Assembly: GCF_014280195.1 (NCBI RefSeq)
Contig: NZ_CP047960.1
Coordinates: forward strand, 870,001 to 902,000
Source: Synechococcus sp. A15-24
Lineage (GTDB): Bacteria > Cyanobacteriota > Cyanobacteriia > PCC-6307 > Cyanobiaceae
Direction of reading: 5' to 3'
Length of the DNA: 32,000 nucleotides
Part shown: in pieces, positions 4,069-29,586 of the stretch
Position numbering within the stretch: the first letter of the stretch is position 1
Layout of the letters: the number at the start of each line of letters is the position of its first letter
The notes under the pieces: model-generated
The model's input: only the letters and a program-made list of their open reading frames with translations
Told to the model about the DNA's origin: nothing
Databases searched by the model: none
Translations under genes and position numbers: made by a program

Positions 4069-5718
4069 ATGCGATACGACCCCGGCCGCGATCTACGCTG
4101 GCTGCTGCTGCGACCATGGATCGCCATTCCCCGCCTGATCCAGGTGTTGTGGTCCCTGGGGGGTCTCGTGCTGGTGCTGCTGCTGCAGGGGGGCAGCTCG
4201 GACTCAGCTGTGCAGCAACGGCTGGCCCGCCGCATCCTCAACACCCTCACCGGATTGGGGCCCTGTTTCATCAAGGTGGGGCAGGCCCTGTCCACTCGTC
4301 CTGACCTCGTCCGCCGGGACTGGCTTGAAGAGCTGACACGACTTCAGGACGACCTTCCCGCCTTCCCCCATGCCCTGGCACTGGAGCGCATTGAACAGGA
4401 GCTCGGTGCATCGGCCCATGAGCTGTTCGACGCGTTCCCGGATGCTCCGATCGCGGCCGCCAGCCTTGGACAGGTCTACAAAGCCCGTCTGGAAGGGAAT
4501 GCCTGGGTTGCCGTGAAGGTACAGCGCCCCAACCTCACCTTCATCCTACGCCGCGATCTGGTGCTGATCCGTCTGCTGGGTGTCATCACAGCTCCGCTGC
4601 TGCCGCTCAATCTCGGTTTCGGTCTCGGCGACATCATCGATGAGTTCGGTCGCAGCCTGTTTGAAGAGATTGACTACGTCCAGGAAGCCGACAACGCCGA
4701 ACGCTTCGCCAGCCTCTTCGCCGACAACGACGCGGTTTACGTTCCGCGGGTGGAGCGGATGCTCAGCTCCACCCGGGTGCTCACCACCACCTGGATCGAT
4801 GGCGTCAAGATGCGCGACAGCGACGAGCTGCAGGCGCTGCAACTCGACCCTGCCGCACTGATTCGCACCGGGGTGATTTGCGGCCTGCAACAACTGCTGG
4901 AATTCGGGTACTTCCATGCCGACCCGCATCCCGGCAACCTCTTCGCACTGCAGGGCCGCAGCGGCGACCTGGGCCATGTCGGCTATGTCGACTTTGGAAT
5001 GATGGATTCGATCAGCGACAGCGACCGGCTCACCCTCACCGGAGCCGTGGTGCATCTGATCAACCGCGACTTTGCCGGGTTGGCTGAGGATTTTCAGTCG
5101 CTCGGCTTCCTCAGCCCCAGCGCGGATCTCACCCCGATCGTGCCGGCCCTGGAGGAGGTGCTCGGCGGCAGCCTTGGGGACTCCGTCGGCTCGTTCAACT
5201 TCAAGGCGATCACCGATCGCTTTTCAGAGCTGATGTTCGACTATCCCTTCCGGGTCCCGGCACGCTTCGCTCTGATCATCCGGGCGGTGGTCAGTCAGGA
5301 GGGGCTGGCGCTGCGTTTGGATCCGAACTTCCGCATCATTGCTGTCGCCTATCCCTACGTGGCACGACGGCTGCTGGCGGGGGACACCCGTGAGATGCGC
5401 GACAAACTGCTGGAGGTGATCTTCGATGCGGACGGGCGTCTGTCCCTTGATCGGCTGGAAAACCTTCTTGCTGTGGTCGGTCAGGATGCACCAGCACCTG
5501 GAAAAGAACTGCTGCCCGTTGCTGGTGCAGGCCTGCGCTTGTTGCTCAGTCGCGATGGTGCCGATCTACGCAAACGACTGCTGCTCACCCTGATCCGCGA
5601 TAACCGGTTGCACACCGATGACGTGCAGGCGCTGATGGGACTGATGGCCCGCACCTTCGGTCCAGCCCGGATTGCCGGTGGCCTGTTGCAACGCCTCAAT
5701 CCTCTGGCGGCTGCCTGA
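4069..5718 (+). CDS. ABC1/UbiB (AarF) family atypical kinase
   Basis: GPCFIKVGQALSTRPDLV, AAASLGQVYKARL, VAVKVQRP and FHADPHPGNL are hallmark ABC1 motifs. Start could be GTG 4048 or ATG 4069. Confidence 0.85.
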   Translation: MRYDPGRDLRWLLLRPWIAIPRLIQVLWSLGGLVLVLLLQGGSSDSAVQQRLARRILNTLTGLGPCFIKVGQALSTRPDLVRRDWLEELTRLQDDLPAFPHALALERIEQELGASAHELFDAFPDAPIAAASLGQVYKARLEGNAWVAVKVQRPNLTFILRRDLVLIRLLGVITAPLLPLNLGFGLGDIIDEFGRSLFEEIDYVQEADNAERFASLFADNDAVYVPRVERMLSSTRVLTTTWIDGVKMRDSDELQALQLDPAALIRTGVICGLQQLLEFGYFHADPHPGNLFALQGRSGDLGHVGYVDFGMMDSISDSDRLTLTGAVVHLINRDFAGLAEDFQSLGFLSPSADLTPIVPALEEVLGGSLGDSVGSFNFKAITDRFSELMFDYPFRVPARFALIIRAVVSQEGLALRLDPNFRIIAVAYPYVARRLLAGDTREMRDKLLEVIFDADGRLSLDRLENLLAVVGQDAPAPGKELLPVAGAGLRLLLSRDGADLRKRLLLTLIRDNRLHTDDVQALMGLMARTFGPARIAGGLLQRLNPLAAA

Positions 5719-5763
5719 TCAGTTGCCGCTAGGGTCGCGACTTTCAAGCCATCTGAGGCGTCG

Positions 5764-6183
5764 ATGCCCGAGGAAATCACCGCTGAACAGCTAGAGATGC
5801 TGTTGCAGATGGCCGTGCTGCCCCAGCCTCCTTACCTGATGGCTGGTGTGGGGCTGTTGATGGGTGTGTTGTGCGGGTTGACCTTTGGCCGTCAGGTGCA
5901 GGACAAGCTCGATGGCTGGAAGCAGGATCGTCTTCCGCTTCTGCCTCTGGCCACAGCGGAGATCAGCCTCAGCTTCACCGGCATCCTGATAGGGATCACC
6001 CTGTTCATCGGCTGCTGCCTGCAGATCTTCGGCTTCGCCGCCGGTGCGGCGCTCCTGGTGGCGTTGTTGCTGTCGCTGCTGACGGGTGGTGCTCTCTTCG
6101 CTCAGCTGGAGCGATTGATGCTGCAGGTGGAAAGCGGCAACTTCAAGGCCGTTGATTTCGACAACTTCGACGAGTTCTTCTGA
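5764..6183 (+). CDS. small integral membrane protein, unknown function
   Basis: 139-aa ORF with three hydrophobic spans and an acidic C-terminus (DFDNFDEFF). Codon bias is host-like. The long antisense ORF 5791-6918 is judged spurious. Confidence 0.6.
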   Translation: MPEEITAEQLEMLLQMAVLPQPPYLMAGVGLLMGVLCGLTFGRQVQDKLDGWKQDRLPLLPLATAEISLSFTGILIGITLFIGCCLQIFGFAAGAALLVALLLSLLTGGALFAQLERLMLQVESGNFKAVDFDNFDEFF

Positions 6184-16006: not shown

Positions 16007-16240
16007 TTGACGGAGATCGAGCTCAACCGACTGCGCGCCAAGTTGCGGCGCCTGGTTTTCACCGAGGAGGCGATTGATCGCACTTTGCGCCGATTTCAGA
16101 GGGATCTGGAGACCTTTGCGTCCGCCAGCCGGATCATCGAGGGCCTTGAGCGTGAGAAACCGGAACAGCAGGTGCTGCAAGCCCTGGCCTGTGGCCTGAT
16201 CGCGGCTGTGTTGGGGGGGTGGTTCGCCACTGTTAGCTAG
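16007..16240 (+). CDS. small hypothetical protein with C-terminal TM span
   Basis: 77-aa ORF with a TTG start 4 nt after the upstream stop. Host-like codon bias. C-terminal hydrophobic tail LACGLIAAVLGGWFATV. Confidence 0.45.
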   Translation: MTEIELNRLRAKLRRLVFTEEAIDRTLRRFQRDLETFASASRIIEGLEREKPEQQVLQALACGLIAAVLGGWFATVS

Positions 16241-16264: not shown

Positions 16265-17041
16265 TCAGGGGCGTTTGAACAGCAGCAACCCCACACAGAG
16301 CACGCCAATCAAAGGGCCAGGGGGGAGATCCGCAGCAACCGCGAGCATCATGCCGCCGCCACAGAGCAGCAGGCCTGTTCCTGCAGAGCGCAACATCAGC
16401 CCCCGCAAGCTCAGGCAGCGATCCACGTGCACCAGCACCGGAGCACAGAGCAGGGCGATCACCAGCACGATGCCCACAGCTGTGATGGCGCTGATCACCA
16501 CGAGGGCAGTGATCACGATGGCAGTAAAACGAATTCTGGACACCGGCCTTTTGGCCGCGACGGCTCCATCGGGATCGACGCCGAGGAACACCAGATCTCT
16601 GTAAGACAGGCTCAGAAGCACCAGCAGCGCGACGGTTGCCACGGCGGTGCGAATCAGGTCTGCTTCGTTGGCGGCCAGAAGGTCGCCGAACAGCAGTGTT
16701 TCCAGATCAACCCGCGCCTGCAGCAAGGGCACCATCAGCACGCCAAGGGCGGTGAATCCGGCCAGAACAGTGTTCATGGCACCTTCTTCCCGGCCTTTGA
16801 AGCGTTGGTTGAGTTGTTCCGCCAACAGCGCCCCGAGCAGTCCGCTGATCAGGCCGCCGATGGTTGGATCGAGTTCGAAGGCCAGCGCGAGGATCAGGCC
16901 GGGCAAGACCGAATGGGCCATCAGATTGGCCAGCAGGATGCGCCGCTGGGTGATCAGCAGTGAGCCGGTCGCTGGGCAAATCAGCCCGATCAGCAGGGCC
17001 AGGATCAGCGGCGTCAGCCACCAGAGGTCGAGCTCAGCCAC
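16265..17041 (-). CDS. znuB: metal (Zn/Mn-type) ABC transporter permease, ABC-3 family
   Basis: Polytopic protein (about 8 TM spans) with ABC-3 family appearance. Overlaps the upstream ATPase gene by 8 nt. Confidence 0.8.
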   Translation of the reverse strand: MAELDLWWLTPLILALLIGLICPATGSLLITQRRILLANLMAHSVLPGLILALAFELDPTIGGLISGLLGALLAEQLNQRFKGREEGAMNTVLAGFTALGVLMVPLLQARVDLETLLFGDLLAANEADLIRTAVATVALLVLLSLSYRDLVFLGVDPDGAVAAKRPVSRIRFTAIVITALVVISAITAVGIVLVIALLCAPVLVHVDRCLSLRGLMLRSAGTGLLLCGGGMMLAVAADLPPGPLIGVLCVGLLLFKRP

Positions 17042-17744
17042 AGCAATGGCTCCCCATCAGGCAGGCCATGTCGTTGAGCTGGTCGCGCACCTCAGCGGGG
17101 GATCCCGCAGCAAGCACCTTGCGATCAAGAACGACGACACGGTCGTAGCTGTCGAGGGCGCTGCCCCAGTCGTGGCTGCTCACCAGAAGGGTCTGACCGG
17201 AGTTGGCCTGTTGGCGCAACACCCCGAGAAGGTGCTCACGGCTGGGGGGATCGATGGCACTGCAGGGTTCATCAAGCAACAGGACGTCGCTCTGCTGCAT
17301 CAAGGCTCTGGCCAGCAGCACCCGTTGCTGTTGGCCGCCGGAGAGCTGATTGAGACGCCGCCCCCGCATCTCCCCCATTCCAACCCGCTCCAGCAGGGTC
17401 TCGGCCGTTGTTGTGCCCTGGCTGTTGTTTCGTCCCTGGCTGTTGGGTTGTCCAAGCCTGACCATATCCTTCACGGTGATGGGAAAGGTCCAGTCGATGG
17501 CTGCCCTCTGGGGCATCAGGCCAATGCTGCCGCCGCATTCAAAGGTTCCTCCCGAAGGTTGGAGGCGGCCATGCAACAGATGCAGAAGCGTTGATTTGCC
17601 AGCGCCATTGGGGCCCACCAGTGCCGTCAGCGTGCCGGGCTGGAGCTCCAGGTCGACACGCTCCAGTGTTGATTTTGGGCCGTGGCTATAGCTGAGATCC
17701 CTGGCTGCGAGATGCCCCTTGATGGACGAATGAGGTTCTGTCAC
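17034..17744 (-). CDS. znuC: metal ABC transporter ATP-binding protein
   Basis: Walker A GPNGAGKST, signature LSGGQQQRVLLARAL, Walker B LLLDEP. GTG start. Confidence 0.85.
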   Translation of the reverse strand: MTEPHSSIKGHLAARDLSYSHGPKSTLERVDLELQPGTLTALVGPNGAGKSTLLHLLHGRLQPSGGTFECGGSIGLMPQRAAIDWTFPITVKDMVRLGQPNSQGRNNSQGTTTAETLLERVGMGEMRGRRLNQLSGGQQQRVLLARALMQQSDVLLLDEPCSAIDPPSREHLLGVLRQQANSGQTLLVSSHDWGSALDSYDRVVVLDRKVLAAGSPAEVRDQLNDMACLMGSHCCG

Positions 17745-17811
17745 AGCTGCGGTGGGTTCACTTCATCATGCGGTCGCGATTGGGTTGCGCCAACCCGTTG
17801 AACTGTAAAAA

Positions 17812-17826
17812 TGATAATCATTCTCA
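17812..17826. promoter_or_regulatory. Zur/Fur-family operator candidate in the znuC-znuA divergent intergenic region
   Basis: TGATAATCATTCTCA is a 7-1-7 near-palindrome with one mismatch to the TGATAATNATTATCA-type Zur box, recalled from cyanobacterial literature. It ends 11 nt upstream of the preferred znuA ATG (17837). Confidence 0.6.
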
Positions 17827-17836
17827 TTCGAGTGTC

Positions 17837-18757
17837 ATGGCGCGTCCTGCGCTTTCGGTCAAGGGTCTGGCGGTCGCCCTGGGCATTGTCTCGGGTTGTT
17901 CAGTCTCGGCGCAGGCGGCCCAGCCAAGCGTTGTGGCTGTGGATGGAACCCTGTGTGACATCACCCGAACGGTGGTGGGAGCGGCGGCGAAGGTCACCTG
18001 CCTGATCCCGCCGGGTGGTGATCCCCACGGCTATCGCCTCAAGCCCAGCGACCGGAAGGCCATCGCAACGTCGGCAGCAGTGGTTCACATCGGCTTTGGT
18101 CTCACCCCTGCAGCCGATGAGATCACCAGTCCTGGGTCTGTCGTGGCCGTTGGCGAACAGGCATTGCCGAATTACACGGGAAGCGACCCCCATGTCTGGC
18201 ATGACCCGGCCAACTCGGCCGCCATGGTGTCGGCACTGAGCTCTGCTCTGATTCCTGTCCTGCCCGCATCGGAAACAGAAGGTTTTAAAGAACGCGCGAC
18301 GGTAGCCATTGCTGTGTTTAACGACCTCAGCCGTTGGGGAGCCATTCAGTTTGAAAAGCTGCCTCAACCGCAGCGGGTGATCGTCACCGATCACAAGACC
18401 TACAGCCACTTGGCCGATCGCTACGGGGTGGATGAAATTGCCATGCTTGATAGCTACACCACTGGGGGTGTGCTGCGTCCCTCCAGCCTGCGCAGGATCA
18501 GCAAGGAGATCAAAGCTTCAGGCGCAAAGGTGATTTTCACGCCGTCGATTCCTCCGAGCAAAACGCTGCGCAGGATCAGCAGATCAACCGGATTGCCAAT
18601 TGCGCCCACACCACTAGTTGGTGAGGGAACAGCTGCCGGAGAAACAGCGATCTCCACGGCGACGATCAACATCTGCACGATGGTGCAAGGGCAGGGCGGG
18701 ACCTGTGATAAGGCCTCTGCTGAGGCCCTGAATGATCGTTGGCAGGCCATTCGTTAA
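17837..18757 (+). CDS. znuA: metal ABC transporter substrate-binding lipoprotein (TroA/ZnuA cluster-9 family)
   Basis: Lipobox LGIVSGC, metal-ligand motifs GGDPHGY and SDPHVWHDP, and VTDHKTYSHL. Start taken at ATG 17837; the track start at 17768 would put the operator inside the CDS. Metal specificity (Zn vs Mn) is not proven. Confidence 0.8.
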   Translation: MARPALSVKGLAVALGIVSGCSVSAQAAQPSVVAVDGTLCDITRTVVGAAAKVTCLIPPGGDPHGYRLKPSDRKAIATSAAVVHIGFGLTPAADEITSPGSVVAVGEQALPNYTGSDPHVWHDPANSAAMVSALSSALIPVLPASETEGFKERATVAIAVFNDLSRWGAIQFEKLPQPQRVIVTDHKTYSHLADRYGVDEIAMLDSYTTGGVLRPSSLRRISKEIKASGAKVIFTPSIPPSKTLRRISRSTGLPIAPTPLVGEGTAAGETAISTATINICTMVQGQGGTCDKASAEALNDRWQAIR

Positions 18758-18769
18758 TGCCTGCTTGAC

Positions 18770-19912
18770 GTGCAGACGTCCAAGCATCCTCAATCTTTTC
18801 TCCTCTCCCTCAACATTTTCTCTCCCGTGTTCGTCTTCTCAACCAAGCCACGTCTCAGATTCCTGCTTTTAGCCCTGCTTCTGCTCCCTTGCACTGCAGC
18901 CCGGCCTGTCATGGCCCATGGATCCCATGGGGGAGGAGATGAGGAACTTGAGGCTGGTGAGTTTGATTTCACTCCTCTGATTACCATCGAAGGGCATGGT
19001 GGGTTTGAAACCAACTTGGATGATAACCCCAAGCATTACGCCATTGATGGATTGTTTGGTGGCGTGTTCCAGTGGGGCTTGGGCAACGGCGGAAGTCTCA
19101 CGATTGAAGCCGCTGTGGGACCTTCAGTGGTGTGGGGTGAGGCTGAACATTTTTACGGGAAGGTGCATGTTGATGATGATCATGGCCATAGGGATGAGGA
19201 CCATCACGACCACGACGAGCATGCTGATAATGACCACGACGAGCATGCTGAGGATGATCATCACGACCACGACGAGCATGCTGATAATGACCACGACGAG
19301 CATGCTGAGGATGATCATCATGAGCACGCAGAGCATGCCCACGATGAACACGGGCATGGTGATCCTGAGCTGAAACGAACGGACGTTCGTGGTTTCCTTA
19401 GTGTGCGCTATGCACCCAATGATCGCCTCAGCCTCACGGTGGATTGGATGCCCTATTACGTCACCGAGGATCAAGGTGACGATATCCAGGGTTTAAAGAA
19501 TGAGTTAGGTGCTAAAGTGGTTTGGGCGCTTGGTGATGGTGACGTTGACTTCGCTTTGGGTGATGGTCTTGAGAGCATTCTCGAGGGCATTTTCCTCTCC
19601 GTGATGCACCGTCAGGGTTGGGAATCCGATGGCACCTGGATGGGCAACTACACCGATCCCCGCCTGGGCGTTGGCTTCAACATTGACCAGATCAATGTCA
19701 TCATCGATGCCGGGCCTCGTTTCTACACACCTGGCAGCTATTCAGGTTTGAGTCAGCGGACTGACTTTGCCGGTGAAGTGGAAGTCTCTATCCCCGTTGG
19801 CGATGCCGTTCTGTTCGCCCATTGGAAGCCGACCTACAGCCCGGATGATGCTCCTGGCTGGGGTGAGGGATGGCAGCACCACCTCGGCACGGGGGTGACC
19901 TTCAGCTTCTGA
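18770..19912 (+). CDS. secreted His/Asp/Glu-rich protein, possible outer-membrane beta-barrel
   Basis: Signal peptide (RLRFLLLALLLLPCTAARPVMA; alternative GTG start at 18827). About 65 aa of HD/HE repeats (HGHRDEDHHDHDEHADNDHDEHAEDD...). Alternating-hydrophobic strands and a C-terminal ...GTGVTFSF ending in Phe. Confidence 0.75.
   Translation: MQTSKHPQSFLLSLNIFSPVFVFSTKPRLRFLLLALLLLPCTAARPVMAHGSHGGGDEELEAGEFDFTPLITIEGHGGFETNLDDNPKHYAIDGLFGGVFQWGLGNGGSLTIEAAVGPSVVWGEAEHFYGKVHVDDDHGHRDEDHHDHDEHADNDHDEHAEDDHHDHDEHADNDHDEHAEDDHHEHAEHAHDEHGHGDPELKRTDVRGFLSVRYAPNDRLSLTVDWMPYYVTEDQGDDIQGLKNELGAKVVWALGDGDVDFALGDGLESILEGIFLSVMHRQGWESDGTWMGNYTDPRLGVGFNIDQINVIIDAGPRFYTPGSYSGLSQRTDFAGEVEVSIPVGDAVLFAHWKPTYSPDDAPGWGEGWQHHLGTGVTFSF
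19202..19315 (+). repeat. perfect 57-bp x2 in-frame tandem duplication inside the His-rich gene
   Basis: 19202-19258 is identical to 19259-19315 (CATCACGACCACGACGAGCATGCTGATAATGACCACGACGAGCATGCTGAGGATGAT). The 20-nt core GACCACGACGAGCATGCTGA occurs 4 times (19208, 19232, 19265, 19289). Confidence 0.95.
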
Positions 19913-21235
19913 TCAGCCCGCCGGCAGCCAGCGGGCCTCCTTGATCGGTTCGTCCATCACTTCCCTCAATCGGAGAGTGTCGGCCTCAATCAGGGCGGCT
20001 CGCCCGCCCTTCAGATCGGGTTGGGTCAACGTCATCAACAGATCGTTGCCAACGGAGTTGTGCTCCACCCCTGTTCCTGGCCTCAGGGTCCAGGGGGCCA
20101 GATTTCGCCGTTGAAGGACTGTGCCTTCGCTGTTGAACTGCACCATTTCATGCTGGCTGCGTTGGCCCTGCCAGATCCCCAACACCGCCCAGATCCGATC
20201 GCCGGAGCCATTGCAGCTCACCGCCAGCACGGCCTGGTCTCCGAGGTGGAGTTGTCGCGGGGCCAGGCCAGGGATCACCAGTTCGATGGAGCGGCGGTAG
20301 TCCGGCCAATGGCGGATCAGCACCGCTCGGCCTGACGTGGCGCAGAAGGCCCCAAGCTCACGGCTGCCCGGCAGCACTTGGGGAGCCTTGCCGTTGTCCT
20401 TGAGCGGCTGGATGCTGATGCCGTCGTAGCCCGGCACCACCAGGCCGCCGCCGGCTGGCAGCAACTGCACCGGTCCGGAGGAGGGCAGCTCCAGCATCTG
20501 TCGCTCGCCATTGGCCAGCAGCAGCTCAAGGGTTTCACTGCCCGGTTTCAATCCGCCGGTCTGCACCAGCAGATCGCCATTGAGGTTGCTGCTGATGTGT
20601 CCAAACAGCAGATCGCCCTCACTCAGTGGTTCCAGAACGCCTTGGGCGGGTACTCCCAGCTGCTGTTTCGATAGGGCAATGTTGCGAGGGGTGAGCCGTT
20701 TGCGCCAGATCGTCTCCTTTCCATTGCCGTTACTGCTCACCATGGCGACACCGCTGCCGTTGCCGAGGGGAACCAGGCTCTGCAGTGAGGCCCAGACAGG
20801 GCTGAGGGGATGCCACTGGCCTTGCCGGTCCTGCAGCTGCAGCTGCTCACCGCCCTCCACATGCCGCGTCACCAGCAACCACGGGCGTGGATCCCACCAT
20901 CGCGTCTGAGGCGTCATCGGTTGCATGCGCTGGTCACGGCCCGCCATCGTCAGTGCGATGGGGGCATCGATGGGCGTTATCCCTCCGAGGATCAACCGCA
21001 GTCGGTTGCCTTGGCCTAGCCAGCGATGGGGTAGTGCAGGGTCAAGGCTGCTTTCCGCCGCCAGGTTGTTGCGGTGCATCGCGCGGCTGAAGCTCAGGTC
21101 CACCGCCGCTCGGCCAGACTGCAGCGGCTGTGGTTCGACGCCAAGCAGCCGCGGGGCCCGTCGCAGCAGCAGCTGTTGCTGGAGGACCACGGTCGCAGCA
21201 GCCAACAGCAGCAGCAGCGTCAGCCTGCGCGTCAT
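19913..21235 (-). CDS. secreted/anchored hypothetical protein (N-terminal Ig-like segment, then repeat/beta-rich region)
   Basis: N-terminal hydrophobic anchor LTLLLLLAAATVVL. 440 aa with host-like codon bias. Its start overlaps the upstream gene by 4 nt, so it is probably the last gene of the permease operon. Confidence 0.65.
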   Translation of the reverse strand: MTRRLTLLLLLAAATVVLQQQLLLRRAPRLLGVEPQPLQSGRAAVDLSFSRAMHRNNLAAESSLDPALPHRWLGQGNRLRLILGGITPIDAPIALTMAGRDQRMQPMTPQTRWWDPRPWLLVTRHVEGGEQLQLQDRQGQWHPLSPVWASLQSLVPLGNGSGVAMVSSNGNGKETIWRKRLTPRNIALSKQQLGVPAQGVLEPLSEGDLLFGHISSNLNGDLLVQTGGLKPGSETLELLLANGERQMLELPSSGPVQLLPAGGGLVVPGYDGISIQPLKDNGKAPQVLPGSRELGAFCATSGRAVLIRHWPDYRRSIELVIPGLAPRQLHLGDQAVLAVSCNGSGDRIWAVLGIWQGQRSQHEMVQFNSEGTVLQRRNLAPWTLRPGTGVEHNSVGNDLLMTLTQPDLKGGRAALIEADTLRLREVMDEPIKEARWLPAG

Positions 21236-21885
21236 GGCTCCAGCGGTCGCTCGGGGCGGGGGATGGGCTTGATCACAGTCGGCACCACCACAGCGGTGGG
21301 TTCACCATTGCGCGGGGCGACCGTCATCCGGCCCTGAATCGCCAACCACTGGTTGGCTTTTGGTTCGGCATCTGCTGGCCAGGCCACCGCCAGTCCAGCT
21401 GGGGTGGCATCGGCCAGGCAACAGCGCACGGTGAGCCTGGCGATCAACGGCGGCCCCTCGGGTTGCCGCCACACGAAGCCGCTGATGTTGACGGGATTTC
21501 CGTCCACCAGCTGCGGGTCGGGCTGGCTGCGCAGCAGTCGCACCCATTCCGTGAGGCTGCGCTGCTCCGGCGGCAACACGAAGGCGAGCTCTGCTGGCTC
21601 CGGCAGACCCTGGGGGCGGTTGCTCGCCAGATCACTGAAGGAGGGGTTCGGGGGGATCAGCAACACCAGACAACCGAGTACTGCGCTGATCAGCCATGGC
21701 CAGCGCGTGGCCTCGCGGCGGCGGCGATGTCGGATCACCAGCAGGAGTCCTGCTGCGAGCAAAACGGCTCCAGAGGCACCGACCAGGCTGTGAAACACCC
21801 CACGCAGCAACAGATCCAGGTGGCCGCTCAGCACGCTCCAGATCACCATCCATCCCCACAGGATCAGCAGCAATCCGCGACTCAT
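21232..21885 (-). CDS. TIGR03943/DUF1980-family membrane protein (partner subunit of COG0701 permeases)
   Basis: N-terminal TM helices plus a C-terminal domain with the VRCCLADA (CCxxDA) motif. Located 13 nt downstream of a COG0701 permease, the usual pairing. Confidence 0.7.
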   Translation of the reverse strand: MSRGLLLILWGWMVIWSVLSGHLDLLLRGVFHSLVGASGAVLLAAGLLLVIRHRRRREATRWPWLISAVLGCLVLLIPPNPSFSDLASNRPQGLPEPAELAFVLPPEQRSLTEWVRLLRSQPDPQLVDGNPVNISGFVWRQPEGPPLIARLTVRCCLADATPAGLAVAWPADAEPKANQWLAIQGRMTVAPRNGEPTAVVVPTVIKPIPRPERPLEP

Positions 21886-21898
21886 GCCATCCCCCGGA

Positions 21899-22855
21899 TC
21901 ACAGCTGCCACAGGTTGACCCATTGGCCGATCAACAGCACCCCCAGGCTGGCTGCGGCGGCGGTGATCGCGATGGCGCGGGGCCGCATCAGCACGGTGAA
22001 CAATCCCGCCAATTTGAGGTCAACAACTGGTCCAAGCAACAGGAAGGCCAGTAGTGCCCCCGGCGTTACCTGCGCCGCGAAACCGAGGGCAAGGAAGGCA
22101 TCCACGCTCGAGCACACCGACACCACCACCGCCAGCAGCATCAACGCCAGGATTGATCCTGTCGGTGCCCCGCCGATCGCCAGCAGCCAGCTGCGCGGCA
22201 ACCAGGTCTGCACGGTGGCGGCGATGACGCAGCCGAGCACCAACAGAGCCAGCAGATCCAGGAATTCGCGACTGCTTTGATCCAGCACATCCCGCAGTAA
22301 TGGGCGCTGCGGCCGTTGGCCCGTGCTGGCTGGCAGCGGTGCGCCGATCAACCCGCTGCCCCGTTGCAGCAGGTCGAGTTTGCGCAGCGGTTGACTGAGG
22401 CGCCGTTCGCTCAACAACGCCGTTTCCAGCAGCTGTGCTTCAGGCAGTTGTGCCAGGAGCAAGCTCAGCAGGATGGCCAGAAGGAAAGCCCCCAGGGGTC
22501 TGGCGATCAGCAGCCAGGGTTGATCGGGAAAGGCCGCCCAGGTGCTCGCCAGCACGATTGGATTCAGCACCGGTGCTGCAAACAGGAATCCAAAGCCGGT
22601 GCCTAAGGGTGCGCCACTGGCGAGCAGGCGGCGGGCGACCGGCACATTGCCGCATTCACAGGCCGGCAGGGCGAACCCCATCAGTGCGCCGGTGATCGGG
22701 GCAAGCACTGGGTGACGGGGCAAGCGGCTGATCCAGGCCCCCTGGGGCACCAGCCAACGGGCCAGGCCTGCGATCACCACCCCCAGCAGCAGAAACGGAA
22801 TCGCCTCCAGGAGCAATCCTTGAAAGATCGCCCAGGCGGTGGCCACTCGTTCCAC
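21899..22855 (-). CDS. COG0701/DUF318 (ArsP-like) permease
   Basis: FQGLLLEAIPFLLLGVVIAG N-terminus and LPACECGNVPVARRL (CxC motif), with about 8 TM spans. Confidence 0.8.
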   Translation of the reverse strand: MERVATAWAIFQGLLLEAIPFLLLGVVIAGLARWLVPQGAWISRLPRHPVLAPITGALMGFALPACECGNVPVARRLLASGAPLGTGFGFLFAAPVLNPIVLASTWAAFPDQPWLLIARPLGAFLLAILLSLLLAQLPEAQLLETALLSERRLSQPLRKLDLLQRGSGLIGAPLPASTGQRPQRPLLRDVLDQSSREFLDLLALLVLGCVIAATVQTWLPRSWLLAIGGAPTGSILALMLLAVVVSVCSSVDAFLALGFAAQVTPGALLAFLLLGPVVDLKLAGLFTVLMRPRAIAITAAAASLGVLLIGQWVNLWQL

Positions 22856-26325: not shown

Positions 26326-26624
26326 GTGTTTCTGTTGTTCTGTGTGTCTGTTCAAATCATGATAAAGCTCGACAGGATGGCCTTCTATGAGTTTGCGACT
26401 CTCTTGAGCTGAAAAGGAAACTAAGGGTTGTACAGCAAAGTATGCTTTTCTTGGGCGCAAGTTGATATTTTGGATTCAAACAAATAATGCCTTTCAGCTT
26501 TTCCACTCTCTGTGAATCTTATAACAAATGCCAAGCACGGCTTTGCGGGCAGCCAGTGGCTTCGGCAAAAACAAGCATTACCAATACCGTTTCTTCTAGC
26601 TTTGTAAGGAGAAATGGCCAACAC

Positions 26625-27341
26625 ATGTCTTCAGGCTGGATATCGATGCCACGTGATCGGCAGCCTGAGGTCATGGACCAACCTGGTCTCGATCCTGCTG
26701 AGCATGTCCGAGCCCTTCAAGGTCTTCGACGGATTAATGCCATCAGTCGTTGTGTACCAGGCCTTTTGCGTTATTTAGAGAAGCTCGCTAGCGAAAGTCC
26801 CACGACTCAGTTGAGCGTGTTGGAGCTGGCTTGCGGAGGTGGTGATACGGCAATTGAGCTTGATGCGCTCGCTCGAAGACGTCACCTCAACATCTCGTTT
26901 CAAGCTTGTGACCTGAACCCTGAAGCTGTGCGGATCGCGCGCCGCAATGTTGCCAGATCAGAAAGTGGTGTTGGTGTGTTTGTTGAGGATGCTCTTGAAC
27001 CGTCTGGATCCAAGCAATTTGATGTGGTGTATTGCACACTTTTTGTTCACCATCTCGATCCACCCGATGTGGTGCGACTACTCAAAGGGATGGCAGCTAG
27101 GGCTCGTCGACTTGTGATTGTTGACGATCTGATTAGGAGCCGTCTTGGGTATTCCTTGGCTTGGATGGGTACGCGACTGCTGAGCCGATCTTGGGTGGTT
27201 CATCACGATGGACCTGTGTCAGTCAAGGGGGCTTACACCCCCACGGAGATTTTGGATCTCGCCTCTCGAGCCGGTTTGCGTGACTGTGTTCTGGAACGGA
27301 GCTGGCCAGAGCGCTACCGGCTCTGCTGGACACCCCACTGA
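26625..27341 (+). CDS. class I SAM-dependent methyltransferase
   Basis: Motif I VLELACGGGD, acidic loop ACDLNPEAV, and post-I/II motifs (FDVVYCTLFVHHL). Start preferred at ATG 26625 (MSSGWISMPRD...). Stop TGA 27339-27341 lies 1 nt before the next ATG. Confidence 0.85.
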   Translation: MSSGWISMPRDRQPEVMDQPGLDPAEHVRALQGLRRINAISRCVPGLLRYLEKLASESPTTQLSVLELACGGGDTAIELDALARRRHLNISFQACDLNPEAVRIARRNVARSESGVGVFVEDALEPSGSKQFDVVYCTLFVHHLDPPDVVRLLKGMAARARRLVIVDDLIRSRLGYSLAWMGTRLLSRSWVVHHDGPVSVKGAYTPTEILDLASRAGLRDCVLERSWPERYRLCWTPH

Positions 27342-27342
27342 C

Positions 27343-28488
27343 ATGCGAAGCAATTGGGATGTCATCGTGATTGGGGCAGGAGTTGCCGGAGGCTTGGCAG
27401 CCTTCGATTGTGCAAATCGCGGCCTGCGAGTTCTGGTGGTTGAGAAACGGTCCTTCCCCCGCTGGAAGGTGTGTGGTTGCTGCTTTAACGCCAATTCTCT
27501 GGCATCACTGAGTGCCACAGGCCTCCCGAACCTCATGCACGATCAAGGTGCTGTGCCTCTCGATCAACTTCGTCTTGGTTGGGGTGGTAAGTCGCTCAAG
27601 CTTGGTTTGCCAGGCGGTTTGGCTTTGTCAAGGGAGCGCTTTGATCAGGCTTTGGTCAACGCCGCTGAGGGTGCTGGCGCAACATTGCGCTTTCGAACCA
27701 GTGCCGTGCTTGAGGAGATGACTCCTGAAGGTCGAATGGTGCGGTTACGTCCTCCCAGTGGTGCTCCAGTGGAACGTATCAGTGGCCGTGTCGTACTGGT
27801 CGCAGCCGGCTTAGAGCACCAGGTGATTTCTCCATCTCATGCGGCCAGTTCCAAAAGCACCCCGGAATCGAGGCTTGGTGCGGGTTGCCTCATCGCCGAT
27901 GACGACGGAACTTACGAGTCTGGGACCATTCATATGGCCATTGGCCAGCATGGCTACGTCGGCTTGGTTCGCCGTGAAGATGGTGCTCTGAACTTGGCTG
28001 CTGCTTTCGACCGCGCTGTGGTCAAGTCTTCCGGCGGTGTGGCGCGTGCGGCACAACTTGTTCTGACTCAAGCCGGCTTCGCCTTGCCTCGATCTTTGGA
28101 GTCGTCTCGCTGGCAATTAACCCCCGCACTGACCCGTCGTGCCGGTGCGTTTGCAGGGCATCGCTTTTTGTTGCTCGGCGATGCGACAGGTTACGTGGAG
28201 CCTTTTACCGGTGAGGGAATGGCCTGGGCTCTTGCTGCGGGTGCGTCGGTTGCTCCCTTTGTTGAGGAAGCTCAGGGGGAATGGACAGTGGATCTGGAGC
28301 GGCGTTGGCGAAGAAGGCTGGTGGATCTGACGATCAGTCGTCAGCGCGTGTGCAGTGTGTTGTCGACTGTGTTGAGACAACCGCTCACCACAACCGCATT
28401 GTTCAGCCTCGGGTCTCAATGGCCTGCTGTACCGCAACGCATTATCAGCAGCCTCAATCGCGTGCATCCCCTAATGGCGAGGTCTTAA
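27343..28488 (+). CDS. FAD-dependent oxidoreductase, geranylgeranyl-reductase/flavin-monooxygenase fold
   Basis: DVIVIGAGVAGGLAAFDCANRGLRVLVVEK (GxGxxG + E), FPRWKVCG, and LLLGDATGYVEPFTGEGMAWAL (GD motif). Start at ATG 27343 rather than the track start at 27208. Confidence 0.85.
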   Translation: MRSNWDVIVIGAGVAGGLAAFDCANRGLRVLVVEKRSFPRWKVCGCCFNANSLASLSATGLPNLMHDQGAVPLDQLRLGWGGKSLKLGLPGGLALSRERFDQALVNAAEGAGATLRFRTSAVLEEMTPEGRMVRLRPPSGAPVERISGRVVLVAAGLEHQVISPSHAASSKSTPESRLGAGCLIADDDGTYESGTIHMAIGQHGYVGLVRREDGALNLAAAFDRAVVKSSGGVARAAQLVLTQAGFALPRSLESSRWQLTPALTRRAGAFAGHRFLLLGDATGYVEPFTGEGMAWALAAGASVAPFVEEAQGEWTVDLERRWRRRLVDLTISRQRVCSVLSTVLRQPLTTTALFSLGSQWPAVPQRIISSLNRVHPLMARS

Positions 28489-28491
28489 TCC

Positions 28492-29586
28492 ATGCCTCTC
28501 ATCCTTCACGGAATGGGTACGGCAGTACCAACTCAGCGATTGAGCCAGGCAGAAGCGGTGCAAGTGGCGCATCGCATCAATGCAGAAAGTCCTGAGCATT
28601 CAAGGCTGATGTCGCGCATCTATCAGAAAACCAAGGTTCTCACCCGTGGAAGTGTGCTCCTCGAGAATGATGGTCTCAATGGCACGAGCACGACCAAGGA
28701 TCGTCTCAGTTTCTACGGCTCAGAAAGCCCTGGGACGGCACGACGGATGCATGCTTATAACACTCACGCCGGTGGGTTGTCTCTTGAGGCTGCTACGAAG
28801 GCGCTATCTGATGGTGATATCTCATCAGGGGCGATCACCCACCTCATCACGGTCAGTTGTACTGGGTTTCATTCACCTGGTATTGACCTTTTCTTGATTG
28901 AAAAGCTTGATCTATCGCCGAGTGTTCAGAGGACACACATCGGATTCATGGGATGCCACGCTGCGCTGAATGGCTTGCGTGTTGCCCATGCCTTCGCGGA
29001 AATGGATCCAAAGGCGGTTGTTTTGGTTTGTGCTGTTGAGCTTTGTAGCCTCCATATGGCTTATGGCTGGCACCCAGAGAAGGTCGTTGCCAATGCTTTG
29101 TTTGCTGATGGGGCGGCTGCTGTTGTCGCCTCCTCGGATCCTTCCCTTTCTGATCAATCCTTGGTCTTGCGCCGCAGTGGCTCAACAGTGATTCCTGATA
29201 GTGCAGATCTGATGCAATGGGAGATTGGCGACCATGGTTTTGCGATGGGGTTGTCTCCCCTTGTTCCGGAAACGGTTGGTGCTGCCTTGTTGCCTTGGTT
29301 GCGAGATTGGCTCAAGGATCAGTCGATTGATCTTGAGGCGGTGACGAGCTGGGCTGTGCATCCTGGCGGACCCAGAATTCTCTCCACCTGTGCAGAGGTT
29401 TTGTCGTTGGACCCAGGCCTACTGCACGAATCCAGAGGCATACTTCAGGATCACGGCAACATGTCATCCGCAACGATCCTGTTCATTCTTGATCGATTGC
29501 GTCGGCGGTCAACTACTGGTCCTTGTCTTGCACTGGCCTTTGGCCCTGGGCTGAGTGCTGAGGTTGCACTTTTTGATTTTGAATAA
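28492..29586 (+). CDS. type III polyketide synthase (chalcone/stilbene synthase superfamily)
   Basis: Cys-His-Asn triad contexts are all present: ITVSCTGFHSPG, WAVHPGGPRIL, DHGNMSSATILFIL. Also C-terminal AFGPGL. ATG lies 3 nt after the upstream stop. Confidence 0.92.
   Translation: MPLILHGMGTAVPTQRLSQAEAVQVAHRINAESPEHSRLMSRIYQKTKVLTRGSVLLENDGLNGTSTTKDRLSFYGSESPGTARRMHAYNTHAGGLSLEAATKALSDGDISSGAITHLITVSCTGFHSPGIDLFLIEKLDLSPSVQRTHIGFMGCHAALNGLRVAHAFAEMDPKAVVLVCAVELCSLHMAYGWHPEKVVANALFADGAAAVVASSDPSLSDQSLVLRRSGSTVIPDSADLMQWEIGDHGFAMGLSPLVPETVGAALLPWLRDWLKDQSIDLEAVTSWAVHPGGPRILSTCAEVLSLDPGLLHESRGILQDHGNMSSATILFILDRLRRRSTTGPCLALAFGPGLSAEVALFDFE

Follow-up and report, generated by a model that had tools for sequence, protein, structure and literature searches.

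A predicted outer-membrane barrel with a histidine-rich loop, encoded behind znuA and a Zur box in Synechococcus sp. A15-24

Introduction

Directly downstream of znuA in Synechococcus sp. A15-24 lies a gene, here called the barrel gene, which in our estimate has a probability of roughly 55% of encoding a Zur-controlled, TonB-independent outer-membrane channel that captures zinc upstream of the ZnuABC importer. It was studied within a window of 32,000 nucleotides (nt; contig NZ_CP047960.1, positions 870,001 to 902,000), and all coordinates below are those of this window unless a different locus is named. The gene had been pointed out by a model that saw only the sequence of the window; this original prediction described a secreted protein rich in His, Asp and Glu with a C-terminus like that of an outer-membrane barrel, and suggested that it might capture zinc in the cell envelope.

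Free zinc is extremely low in surface ocean water. If the barrel is indeed the outer-membrane step, it would complete the route by which the most abundant photosynthetic cells on Earth take up zinc, trace-metal capture would proceed without TonB energy, and oceanographers would gain a gene or protein marker of zinc stress. The variable loop of the protein would furthermore offer a natural series relating capture capacity to environment. According to a review, no specific mechanism is known by which zinc crosses the cyanobacterial outer membrane (PMC3323870). The zinc response of the gene has already been published, whereas the fold, topology, internal repeats, family placement, cross-lineage linkage to Zur and mechanism proposed here are new.

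A conserved picocyanobacterial gene behind znuA

The gene and the spacer that separates it from znuA are placed as follows.

18827–19912, plus strand: barrel gene, 361-residue precursor, stop codon at 19910–19912, GTG start according to its homologues
18758–18826, plus strand: 69-nt spacer between znuA and the barrel gene

The open reading frame (ORF) at 18770–19912 on the plus strand codes for 380 residues, and an in-frame GTG at 18827 yields a protein that begins MFVFSTKPRL. The 19 aligned homologues start at the position of this second GTG, and the 19 residues that precede it are unconserved. A start at the GTG at 18770 was therefore rejected, the 19-residue extension being missing from the homologues. 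Counted from the znuA stop at 18757, the gap is 69 nt with the GTG at 18827 and 12 nt with that at 18770, and both values agree with the same-strand start 13–70 nt after znuA that was originally noted. The 69-nt spacer contains no plus-strand promoter-like site, terminator-like site or Zur box, which fits co-transcription of the barrel gene with znuA.

A search of 5.8 billion proteins returned 629 homologues, which are annotated in the databases as 'hypothetical protein' or 'putative conserved secreted protein' and, in so far as they have a named source, all come from marine or freshwater picocyanobacteria. Together with the more than 100 invariant alignment columns found among 40 sequences, this number argues that the gene is not a chance ORF. 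The invariant motifs of the family include EGHGGF, KHY, WGEAEHFYGKVH, PNDR, GLKNE and GDGDxxFxLGDG and, within residues 252–361, HRQGWESDG, GNYTDPR, GPRFY, RTD and GWGxGWQHH.

The original prediction could not name a characterised homologue, and our searches led to the same result. Neither NCBIfam nor PHROGs gave a match for the barrel protein, Pfam gave only the sub-threshold match to PF24653 discussed below, a search of the PDB with the family profile found no sequence relative among solved structures, and a full-text literature search found no paper characterising the family. A profile search against 1.84 billion cluster representatives produced 98 matches, made up of fragments of the family, a few loop-less relatives and compositional matches to ZrgA proteins. 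No viral copy of the full protein was found by tblastn against 50,697 phage genomes or by a scan of IMG/VR viral contigs.

Linkage to Zur and the published zinc response

The linkage of the barrel gene to Zur is well supported. The genes upstream of it form two divergent arms, with a palindrome in the promoter region between znuC and znuA.

16265–17041, minus strand: znuB, ABC-3 permease (Pfam ABC-3, E = 1.8e-44)
17034–17744, minus strand: znuC, ATP-binding cassette (ABC) ATPase, divergent from znuA (Pfam ABC_tran, E = 5.6e-29; best NCBIfam model AztA)
17810–17828, no strand assigned: Zur-box palindrome AATGATAATCATTCTCATT
17837–18757, plus strand: znuA, periplasmic metal-binding protein (Pfam ZnuA, E = 2.6e-43), with a likely ATG start at 17837 just after the Zur box

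The palindrome has three mismatches against its own reverse complement, and 0.00 chance matches to it are expected in the window. Its core equals the RegPrecise consensus of the cyanobacterial Zur box, AATGATNATCATT, as quoted in PMC9337993. A minus-strand promoter-like site for znuC overlaps the box, and in loci of marine Synechococcus, Cyanobium and Prochlorococcus lineage-specific versions of the box precede znuA. The upstream Zur-type box that had been assumed at the outset is thus confirmed, and the transcription unit containing the barrel gene carries a Zur box in its promoter, as a member of the Zur regulon should.

The same arrangement recurs across picocyanobacteria. We surveyed 75 loci from species-representative genomes, 60 of which had enough upstream DNA to be judged. 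In 56 of these 60, drawn from marine Synechococcus, Cyanobium and Prochlorococcus, znuA lies directly upstream of the barrel gene on the same strand, behind a conserved Zur box, so that the co-occurrence with znuA that the original prediction had proposed to survey is nearly universal. Two independent arrangements both point to a link with zinc. The Prochlorococcus single-cell genome AG-363-O15 (locus L048) carries a stand-alone barrel gene at 4992–5951 of that locus, which encodes 319 residues with a short loop and has no znuA within 5 kilobases (kb); it is preceded, 14 nt before its ATG, by a Zur-like box of its own, GATGAAAATGGTTATCGTT (4960–4978), for which the chance expectation is 0.03 per locus. 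In loci L078–L081 the order is a fur-family gene, znuC, znuB, Zur box, znuA, the His-loop barrel and a loop-less barrel, with MerR and COG0523 genes nearby.

Expression data come from Synechococcus WH8102, where the cluster synw0968–synw0973 is up-regulated in a zur mutant and synw0972, an uncharacterised gene likely co-transcribed with znuA, is also induced at 0 added Zn (PMC9337993). Given the order znuB, znuC, znuA, barrel gene and 440-residue ORF that is conserved in marine Synechococcus, the barrel gene is the positional equivalent of synw0972. The published RNA sequencing (RNA-seq) of this syntenic gene agrees with the expected dependence on zinc and Zur and with likely co-transcription with znuA. 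WH8102 does not figure among the loci retrieved here, and the supplements of the same paper contain no mention of synw0972. The zur mutant held 3.6 times more Zn, with lower Mn, Fe and Co and unchanged Ni and Cu (PMC9337993).

The ZnuA protein of the window has no His-rich loop; in an alignment to solved binding proteins only a short segment precedes the ligand motif DPHVWH. Zinc-type ZnuA proteins carry a His-rich loop near the binding site (PMC8786288). ZnuA, ZnuB and ZnuC score best against the NCBIfam models AztC, AztB and AztA, respectively, in each case below the cutoff.

Export signal, predicted barrel and topology

The precursor can be divided into the following segments.

18827–18916, plus strand: signal peptide, residues 1–30, MFVFSTKPRLRFLLLALLLLPCTAARPVMA, with n, h and c regions and a VMA/H cleavage motif by inspection
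18917–18961, plus strand: mature N-terminal tail HGSHGGGDEELEAGE, residues 31–45, predicted to be periplasmic and disordered
18962–19138, plus strand: strands 1–3 of repeat 1, residues 46–104 (46–61, 69–86 and 89–104 by the program DSSP), per-residue confidence ~86–95
19139–19369, plus strand: loop L2, residues 105–181, between strands 3 and 4, with a conserved base EAEHFYGKVH followed by a His/Asp/Glu/Ala tract; predicted to be extracellular
19370–19531, plus strand: strands 4–6 of repeat 1, residues 182–235 (DSSP 182–196, 201–212 and 222–235)
19532–19579, plus strand: inter-repeat linker GDGDVDFALGDGLESI, residues 236–251, predicted to be periplasmic, a short helix in the model
19580–19909, plus strand: strands 7–12 of repeat 2, residues 252–361, ending in the assembly signal GTGVTFSF

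The signal peptide has a charged n-region (K7, R9 and R11), the hydrophobic core FLLLALLLLP and the cleavage motif V-M-A before H31. Homologues are variable up to the predicted cleavage site, and their conservation starts exactly at AHGSHGGG. A lipoprotein reading of Cys22 was rejected, because the residue at −1 is Pro and the Cys is not conserved in homologues. Both the cleavable signal peptide and the HGSHGGG segment that the original prediction had placed near the N-terminus are thus recovered, the latter as the very beginning of the mature protein. The mature protein has 331 residues and no Cys. In its tail, H31, G32, H34, G35 and G36 are invariant or nearly so. The predicted local distance difference test (pLDDT) score, a measure of model confidence, falls below 50 there; the tail precedes strand 1 and is therefore placed in the periplasm by standard barrel topology.

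The structure was predicted with AlphaFold2 from a 40-sequence alignment, and strands were assigned with DSSP. The model has a mean pLDDT of 73 and a predicted template modelling score (pTM) of 0.67, and comprises 12 strands of 12–18 residues with a strand pLDDT of ~85–95; confidence is low in the signal peptide, in the N-terminal tail and in the His-rich tract. When the model was compared with the PDB using Foldseek, the top 50 matches were all outer-membrane barrels, with a probability of 1.0, and the best template modelling scores (TM-scores) belonged to 12-stranded barrels, namely the COG4313 channel 4rl8 (TMt 0.56–0.57), NalP and FapF. Matches in a viral structure library were also barrels, including weak half-length matches to cyanophage PF24653 proteins. 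All 12 strands are amphipathic: one face is hydrophobic, with a mean hydropathy of up to +2.7 and aromatic residues towards both of its ends, and the other is polar. The even number of amphipathic antiparallel strands is that expected of an outer-membrane barrel, and closure of the barrel is judged from strand parity. The C-terminus, GTGVTFSF, ends in G-V-T-F-S-F, in keeping with the β-signal pattern G-x-x-aromatic-x-aromatic, and at least 90% of homologues retain its terminal Phe. We consider the predicted barrel fold well supported; the amphipathic strand-like segments and terminal Phe singled out by the original prediction are both present, and the structure prediction that it had called for returned a barrel.

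The barrel most likely consists of two six-stranded repeats, with the His-rich tract inserted in repeat 1 where repeat 2 has an eight-residue loop. Aligning the N-terminal with the C-terminal half of the family by hhalign gave E = 1e-4 and a probability of 56%, pairing HFYGK[loop]KRTDVRGF with RFYTPGSYSGLSQRTDFAGE. By itself this alignment is only suggestive of an internal duplication, which gains weight from the two stretches of loop-less relatives that match PF24653 (see below). In the linker between the repeats, G236, D237, G238, D239, L244, G245 and D246 are invariant.

For the topology, both termini were assumed to be periplasmic, as in other outer-membrane barrels. Barrels of this kind usually have short periplasmic turns and longer external loops, and the two-residue turns of the model, at 87–88, 287–288 and 325–326, all fall on the side assigned to the periplasm. 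Since these turns define the periplasmic side, loop L2 would face the outside of the cell. Under the same assumption, the invariant PNDR turn and the GDGDxxFxLGDG linker would be periplasmic, and most other invariant motifs would occupy short external loops and the outer strand halves, forming a conserved rim under the variable loop. The invariant residues that face the lumen in the model include E55, H57, H70, D74 and E94 on the polar face of strands 1–3, R184, D186 and K224 on that of strands 4–6, and R262, E266, D277, R279, R298, R311, D313, E317, H332 and H352.

The histidine-rich loop

Loop L2 is disordered in the AlphaFold2 model. Its His-rich tract spans residues 114–183 (nt 19166–19375) and contains 22 His, 21 Asp, 11 Glu and 6 Ala among 70 residues, so that 86% are H, D, E or A; the tract of about 65 residues described originally is therefore present and slightly longer than stated. 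It is built in part by a tandem repeat:

19202–19338, plus strand: repeat unit of 57 nt in 2.4 copies, 95% match, score 246 (Tandem Repeats Finder)

The tract is present in all 144 homologues in which both flanking anchors were found and it could be measured, at lengths of 16–159 residues (median 68) and with ~31% His and 82% H+D+E. Its H/D/E composition is kept across homologues while sequence and length drift. A composition of this kind serves to capture zinc in loop 3 of ZnuD and in ZnuA (PMC4557270). Even within two clusters at 90% identity (P0005 and P0079), the loop ranges over 46–103 and 49–76 residues, respectively, in steps of whole repeat units. Such steps between near-identical proteins fit replication slippage, and possibly also diversifying selection on a surface-exposed loop.

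The profile of the family matches ZrgA zinc-uptake proteins through the His-rich region. Homology to ZrgA was rejected, because these cross-matches cover only the signal peptide and the low-complexity tract and are thus compositional; nor does the barrel protein have a Pfam match to the ZrgA domain (PF10986).

Relationship to PF24653 and other families

Pfam PF24653 (Phage_OMP), a cyanophage β-barrel domain resembling outer-membrane proteins, matches residues 273–359 of the 380-residue ORF with 22 bits and E = 2e-4, short of the gathering cutoff of 27 bits. The cutoff is reached by the orthologues P0040, with 27.0 bits, and P0066, with 28.7 bits, but not by P0121 and P0122. Loop-less proteins of 256–260 residues (P0175 and P0194) are clear members of PF24653, with two matched stretches each. 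The family profile finds P0175 with E = 1.6e-13 among 1.84 billion proteins, and tblastn with P0175 aligns to residues 183–361 (19373–19909) with 32% identity and E = 6e-17. These matches support homology to established members, and we treat the barrel protein as a divergent relative of PF24653 rather than a scored member.

The loop-less cellular members (P0175, P0194 and P0396) constitute the sole detectable sequence family of the barrel protein, and their two stretches match its two six-stranded repeats. Unlike the barrel protein, they have neither the His-rich loop nor the HGSHGGG tail. A loop-less paralogue is found directly after the His-loop barrel, downstream of znuA, in L078–L081. In L078 (1005–5771 of that locus), L079 and L081 all of these genes lie on one strand, the loop-less PF24653 barrel has 256 residues, so that two paralogous barrels follow znuA, and DUF305 and COG0523 (cobW-like) genes are nearby. 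Phage members of PF24653 are single repeats of ~120 residues, and the family has no known function. Cyanophage proteins of PF24653/phrog_417, such as those of P-SSM4 (Q58LB0) and S-CAM3 (A0A1D8KJB2), are of this size and match one six-stranded repeat of the barrel family.

Other placements were not borne out. Pfam gave no match to TonB receptor or plug domains, as a TonB-dependent zinc receptor of the ZnuD type would have, nor to the SLH and OprB domains of the major cyanobacterial porins. Identity with ZepA was rejected in view of the barrel fold, the C-terminal strand ending in Phe and the lack of a VPEP motif.

Proposed mechanism and alternatives

In the mechanism that we propose, the external His/Asp/Glu loop between strands 3 and 4 would act as a flexible antenna of low affinity and high capacity, concentrating Zn2+ at the mouth of the barrel. 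The invariant lumen-side residues E55, H57, H70, D74, E94, E266, D277, H332 and H352, together with H108 and H114 at the base of the loop, could form a binding site or relay in the outer half of the barrel, from which the metal would pass through the polar lumen. On the periplasmic side, the HGSHGGG tail may then hand it to ZnuA, which itself has no His-rich loop, together with the invariant turns PNDR and GDGDxxFxLGDG. The original prediction had left open whether the protein is an outer-membrane channel or a metal sponge, either periplasmic or anchored in the outer membrane; the channel fits better than a periplasmic sponge, and barrel topology rules place the His-rich loop outside the cell.

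Several points weigh against a zinc capture channel. Confidence in the model is moderate overall (pLDDT 73, pTM 0.67), its TM-scores to solved barrels are 0.44–0.57, and the orientation of the loop, the closure of the barrel and the clustering of the histidines are taken from a general topology rule, the model and strand parity. The inter-repeat 'turn', with 16 residues, is long for the periplasmic side. Orthology to synw0972 is read from synteny rather than from a sequence comparison, and a few copies of the gene (L015 and L069) lack both znuA and a recognisable Zur box in their vicinity. The metal specificity of the importer is not settled by its sequence, the binding protein scoring best against AztC and manganese-type models, below their cutoffs, and His/Asp tracts are ligands for Ni, Co, Cu and Cd as well.

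Other readings of the same evidence have to be considered. The barrel could be an anchor only, with the loop, on either face of the membrane, serving as a Zn2+ reservoir or shutting the pore when zinc is plentiful. About 22 His and 32 acidic residues would suffice for many ions, length that changes freely by repeat slippage is expected if capacity outweighs geometry, and the His-rich loop of ZnuA has been suggested to act in regulation (in a reference cited in PMC8786288). However, we regard a zinc store or buffer as unlikely: residues of the lumen face and outer rim are invariant across genera, which would be needless for a passive anchor, induction under zinc scarcity fits acquisition better than storage, and the zinc store of WH8102 is the metallothionein BmtA, whose regulation runs the other way (PMC9337993). 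It is less probable still that the channel serves mainly another metal, such as cobalt, nickel, cadmium or copper, and responds to zinc only through the operon that it shares with znuA. The lack of zinc specificity in His/Asp tracts and the Azt- and manganese-type scores of the adjacent ABC proteins speak for such a channel, and both PMC3323870 and PMC9337993 warn against assigning metal specificity by bioinformatics. Against it stand the metal contents of the WH8102 zur mutant, in which Zn rose, Mn, Fe and Co fell and Ni and Cu did not change (PMC9337993), the Zur-like box that the stand-alone Prochlorococcus copy has of its own, and a mature protein with no Cys and no Met-rich motif of the copper-protein type.

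A role outside transport, for example that of an enzyme, adhesin or structural protein at the cell surface, or of a phage receptor, would make the His-rich loop incidental low-complexity sequence. Some 12-stranded barrels are secretion pores, NalP and FapF among the Foldseek matches being of this kind, and OMPLA is a 12-stranded barrel enzyme. An active site could be made up of the invariant extracellular motifs, hypervariable loops are typical of surface epitopes under phage pressure, and distant relatives (PF24653 and phrog_417) occur in cyanophages. We nonetheless consider a non-transport role very improbable, as it leaves unexplained both why Zur box, znuA and barrel gene are linked almost everywhere and why the H/D/E composition is kept amid sequence drift. 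We give least credence of all to a soluble periplasmic β-protein that acts as a zinc chaperone for ZnuA in the manner of ZinT, AztD or ZrgA. Such a protein would have the signal peptide, the profile does cross-match ZrgA proteins, and the His-rich mature N-terminus with its HGxH motif, which we take to resemble ZinT, can be counted in its favor. But one face of every strand is strongly hydrophobic, the aromatic assembly signal stands at the C-terminus, the structural neighbours are without exception membrane barrels, Pfam gives no ZrgA or ZinT match, and the ZrgA cross-matches are of the compositional kind described above.

The zinc capture channel can be extended into a wider and more tentative picture, which we would put at somewhat worse than even odds. 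A passive, TonB-independent 12-stranded channel would then be the missing outer-membrane zinc route of Prochlorococcus and marine Synechococcus. Its surface loop would pull Zn2+, and perhaps Co2+, off the ligands present in seawater, a His/carboxylate relay would deliver the metal to a loop-less ZnuA, and a loop length set by slippage would tune capture to local zinc, while the related cyanophage half-barrels might hint at tampering by phages.

Neighbouring genes

Beyond the barrel gene, three genes follow on the opposite strand.

19913–21235, minus strand: 440-residue ORF, convergent with the barrel gene, the two stop codons abutting; probable orthologue of synw0973
21232–21885, minus strand: putative permease subunit (TIGR03943/DUF1980), after the 440-residue ORF
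21899–22855, minus strand: ArsP_1-family permease, weakly similar to the Cu/Zn efflux transporter SO_0444

The 440-residue ORF has no Pfam or NCBIfam match, is found only in picocyanobacteria and is syntenic in marine Synechococcus loci. Its AlphaFold2 model (pLDDT 91.5) shows an N-terminal membrane helix and an all-β body, for which Foldseek places TolB and other β-propellers at the top. This propeller-like body is presumably comparable to the AztD propeller and, by analogy, the protein could cooperate with the zinc system in the periplasm.

The Zur dependence of synw0968 and synw0973 was called 'unclear' by the authors of PMC9337993. These two genes probably correspond to the ORFs at 16007–16240 (plus strand) and 19913–21235 (minus strand), each convergent with and directly downstream of one of the units znuCB and znuA–barrel gene. 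No terminator was predicted after the barrel gene. Antisense transcription by read-through could mimic regulation of synw0968 and synw0973 if reads were counted regardless of strand; the WH8102 RNA-seq libraries were strand-specific, and the counting setting is not stated.

The TIGR03943/ArsP_1 pair shows synteny with the znu cluster in marine Synechococcus; in some Cyanobium loci (L016, L059 and L060) it is found beyond znuB instead. One surveyed contig of 378 kb (L018, CALRQW020000002.1), labelled 'MAG: Asaia bogorensis', has a znuA–barrel locus whose coordinates and per-gene identities to the window equal those of the Vulcanococcus locus L022; it is probably cyanobacterial and either mis-binned or mislabelled. 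Elsewhere in the window, three adjacent genes at 26487–29586 on the plus strand encode an S-adenosylmethionine (SAM)-dependent methyltransferase, a flavin adenine dinucleotide (FAD)-dependent oxidoreductase and a type III polyketide synthase of the chalcone/stilbene synthase family; they may form a small secondary-metabolite cluster that has nothing to do with the zinc locus.

Comparison with known zinc systems

The closest solved folds, the COG4313 channel Pput2725 (PDB 4rl8), NalP and FapF, are monomeric 12-stranded barrels of similar size. Unlike the barrel protein, with which they share 8–10% identity, they have other substrates, no metal-binding loop and no link to zinc.

Among systems that do handle zinc, ZepA of Anabaena, found through the exoproteome of a zur mutant, resembles the barrel protein in serving zinc acquisition in the envelope or extracellular space beyond ZnuABC (PMC10957091). 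However, ZepA is secreted, has two domains, one of them Ig-like, and carries a PEP-CTERM signal; it is unrelated in sequence or fold. The porin MspD of Mycobacterium smegmatis supports zinc acquisition (PMC13098993), but is of the MspA type and likewise unrelated in sequence and fold. The flexible His/Asp-rich segments of ZnuA from Synechocystis and E. coli and of the periplasmic zinc handlers ZrgA/PA4063, ZinT and AztD raise the local zinc concentration or pass zinc to the ABC binding protein (PMC8786288; PMC8561739). The latter three are accessory proteins encoded beside znuA or aztC, as the barrel gene is. Whereas all of these are soluble periplasmic proteins of unrelated folds, the loop is here carried by a predicted membrane barrel and probably lies outside the cell.

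The most instructive parallel is ZnuD of Neisseria meningitidis, which, as predicted for the product of the barrel gene, is a Zur-regulated outer-membrane barrel upstream of ZnuABC (PMC4557270). External loop 3 of ZnuD carries clusters rich in H, D and E (HSHEYDDCHAD and HDDDNAHAHTH) and has been described as a 'fishing net' that leads zinc to a buried high-affinity site (PMC4557270). The two proteins differ in construction: ZnuD has 22 strands and a plug and is driven by TonB, whereas the barrel protein is predicted to have 12 strands, with neither plug nor TonB box, its loop is several times longer, and there is no sequence relationship. The barrel protein is not a member of the ZnuD family, but, judging by this analogy, we lean slightly towards a protein that works like ZnuD.

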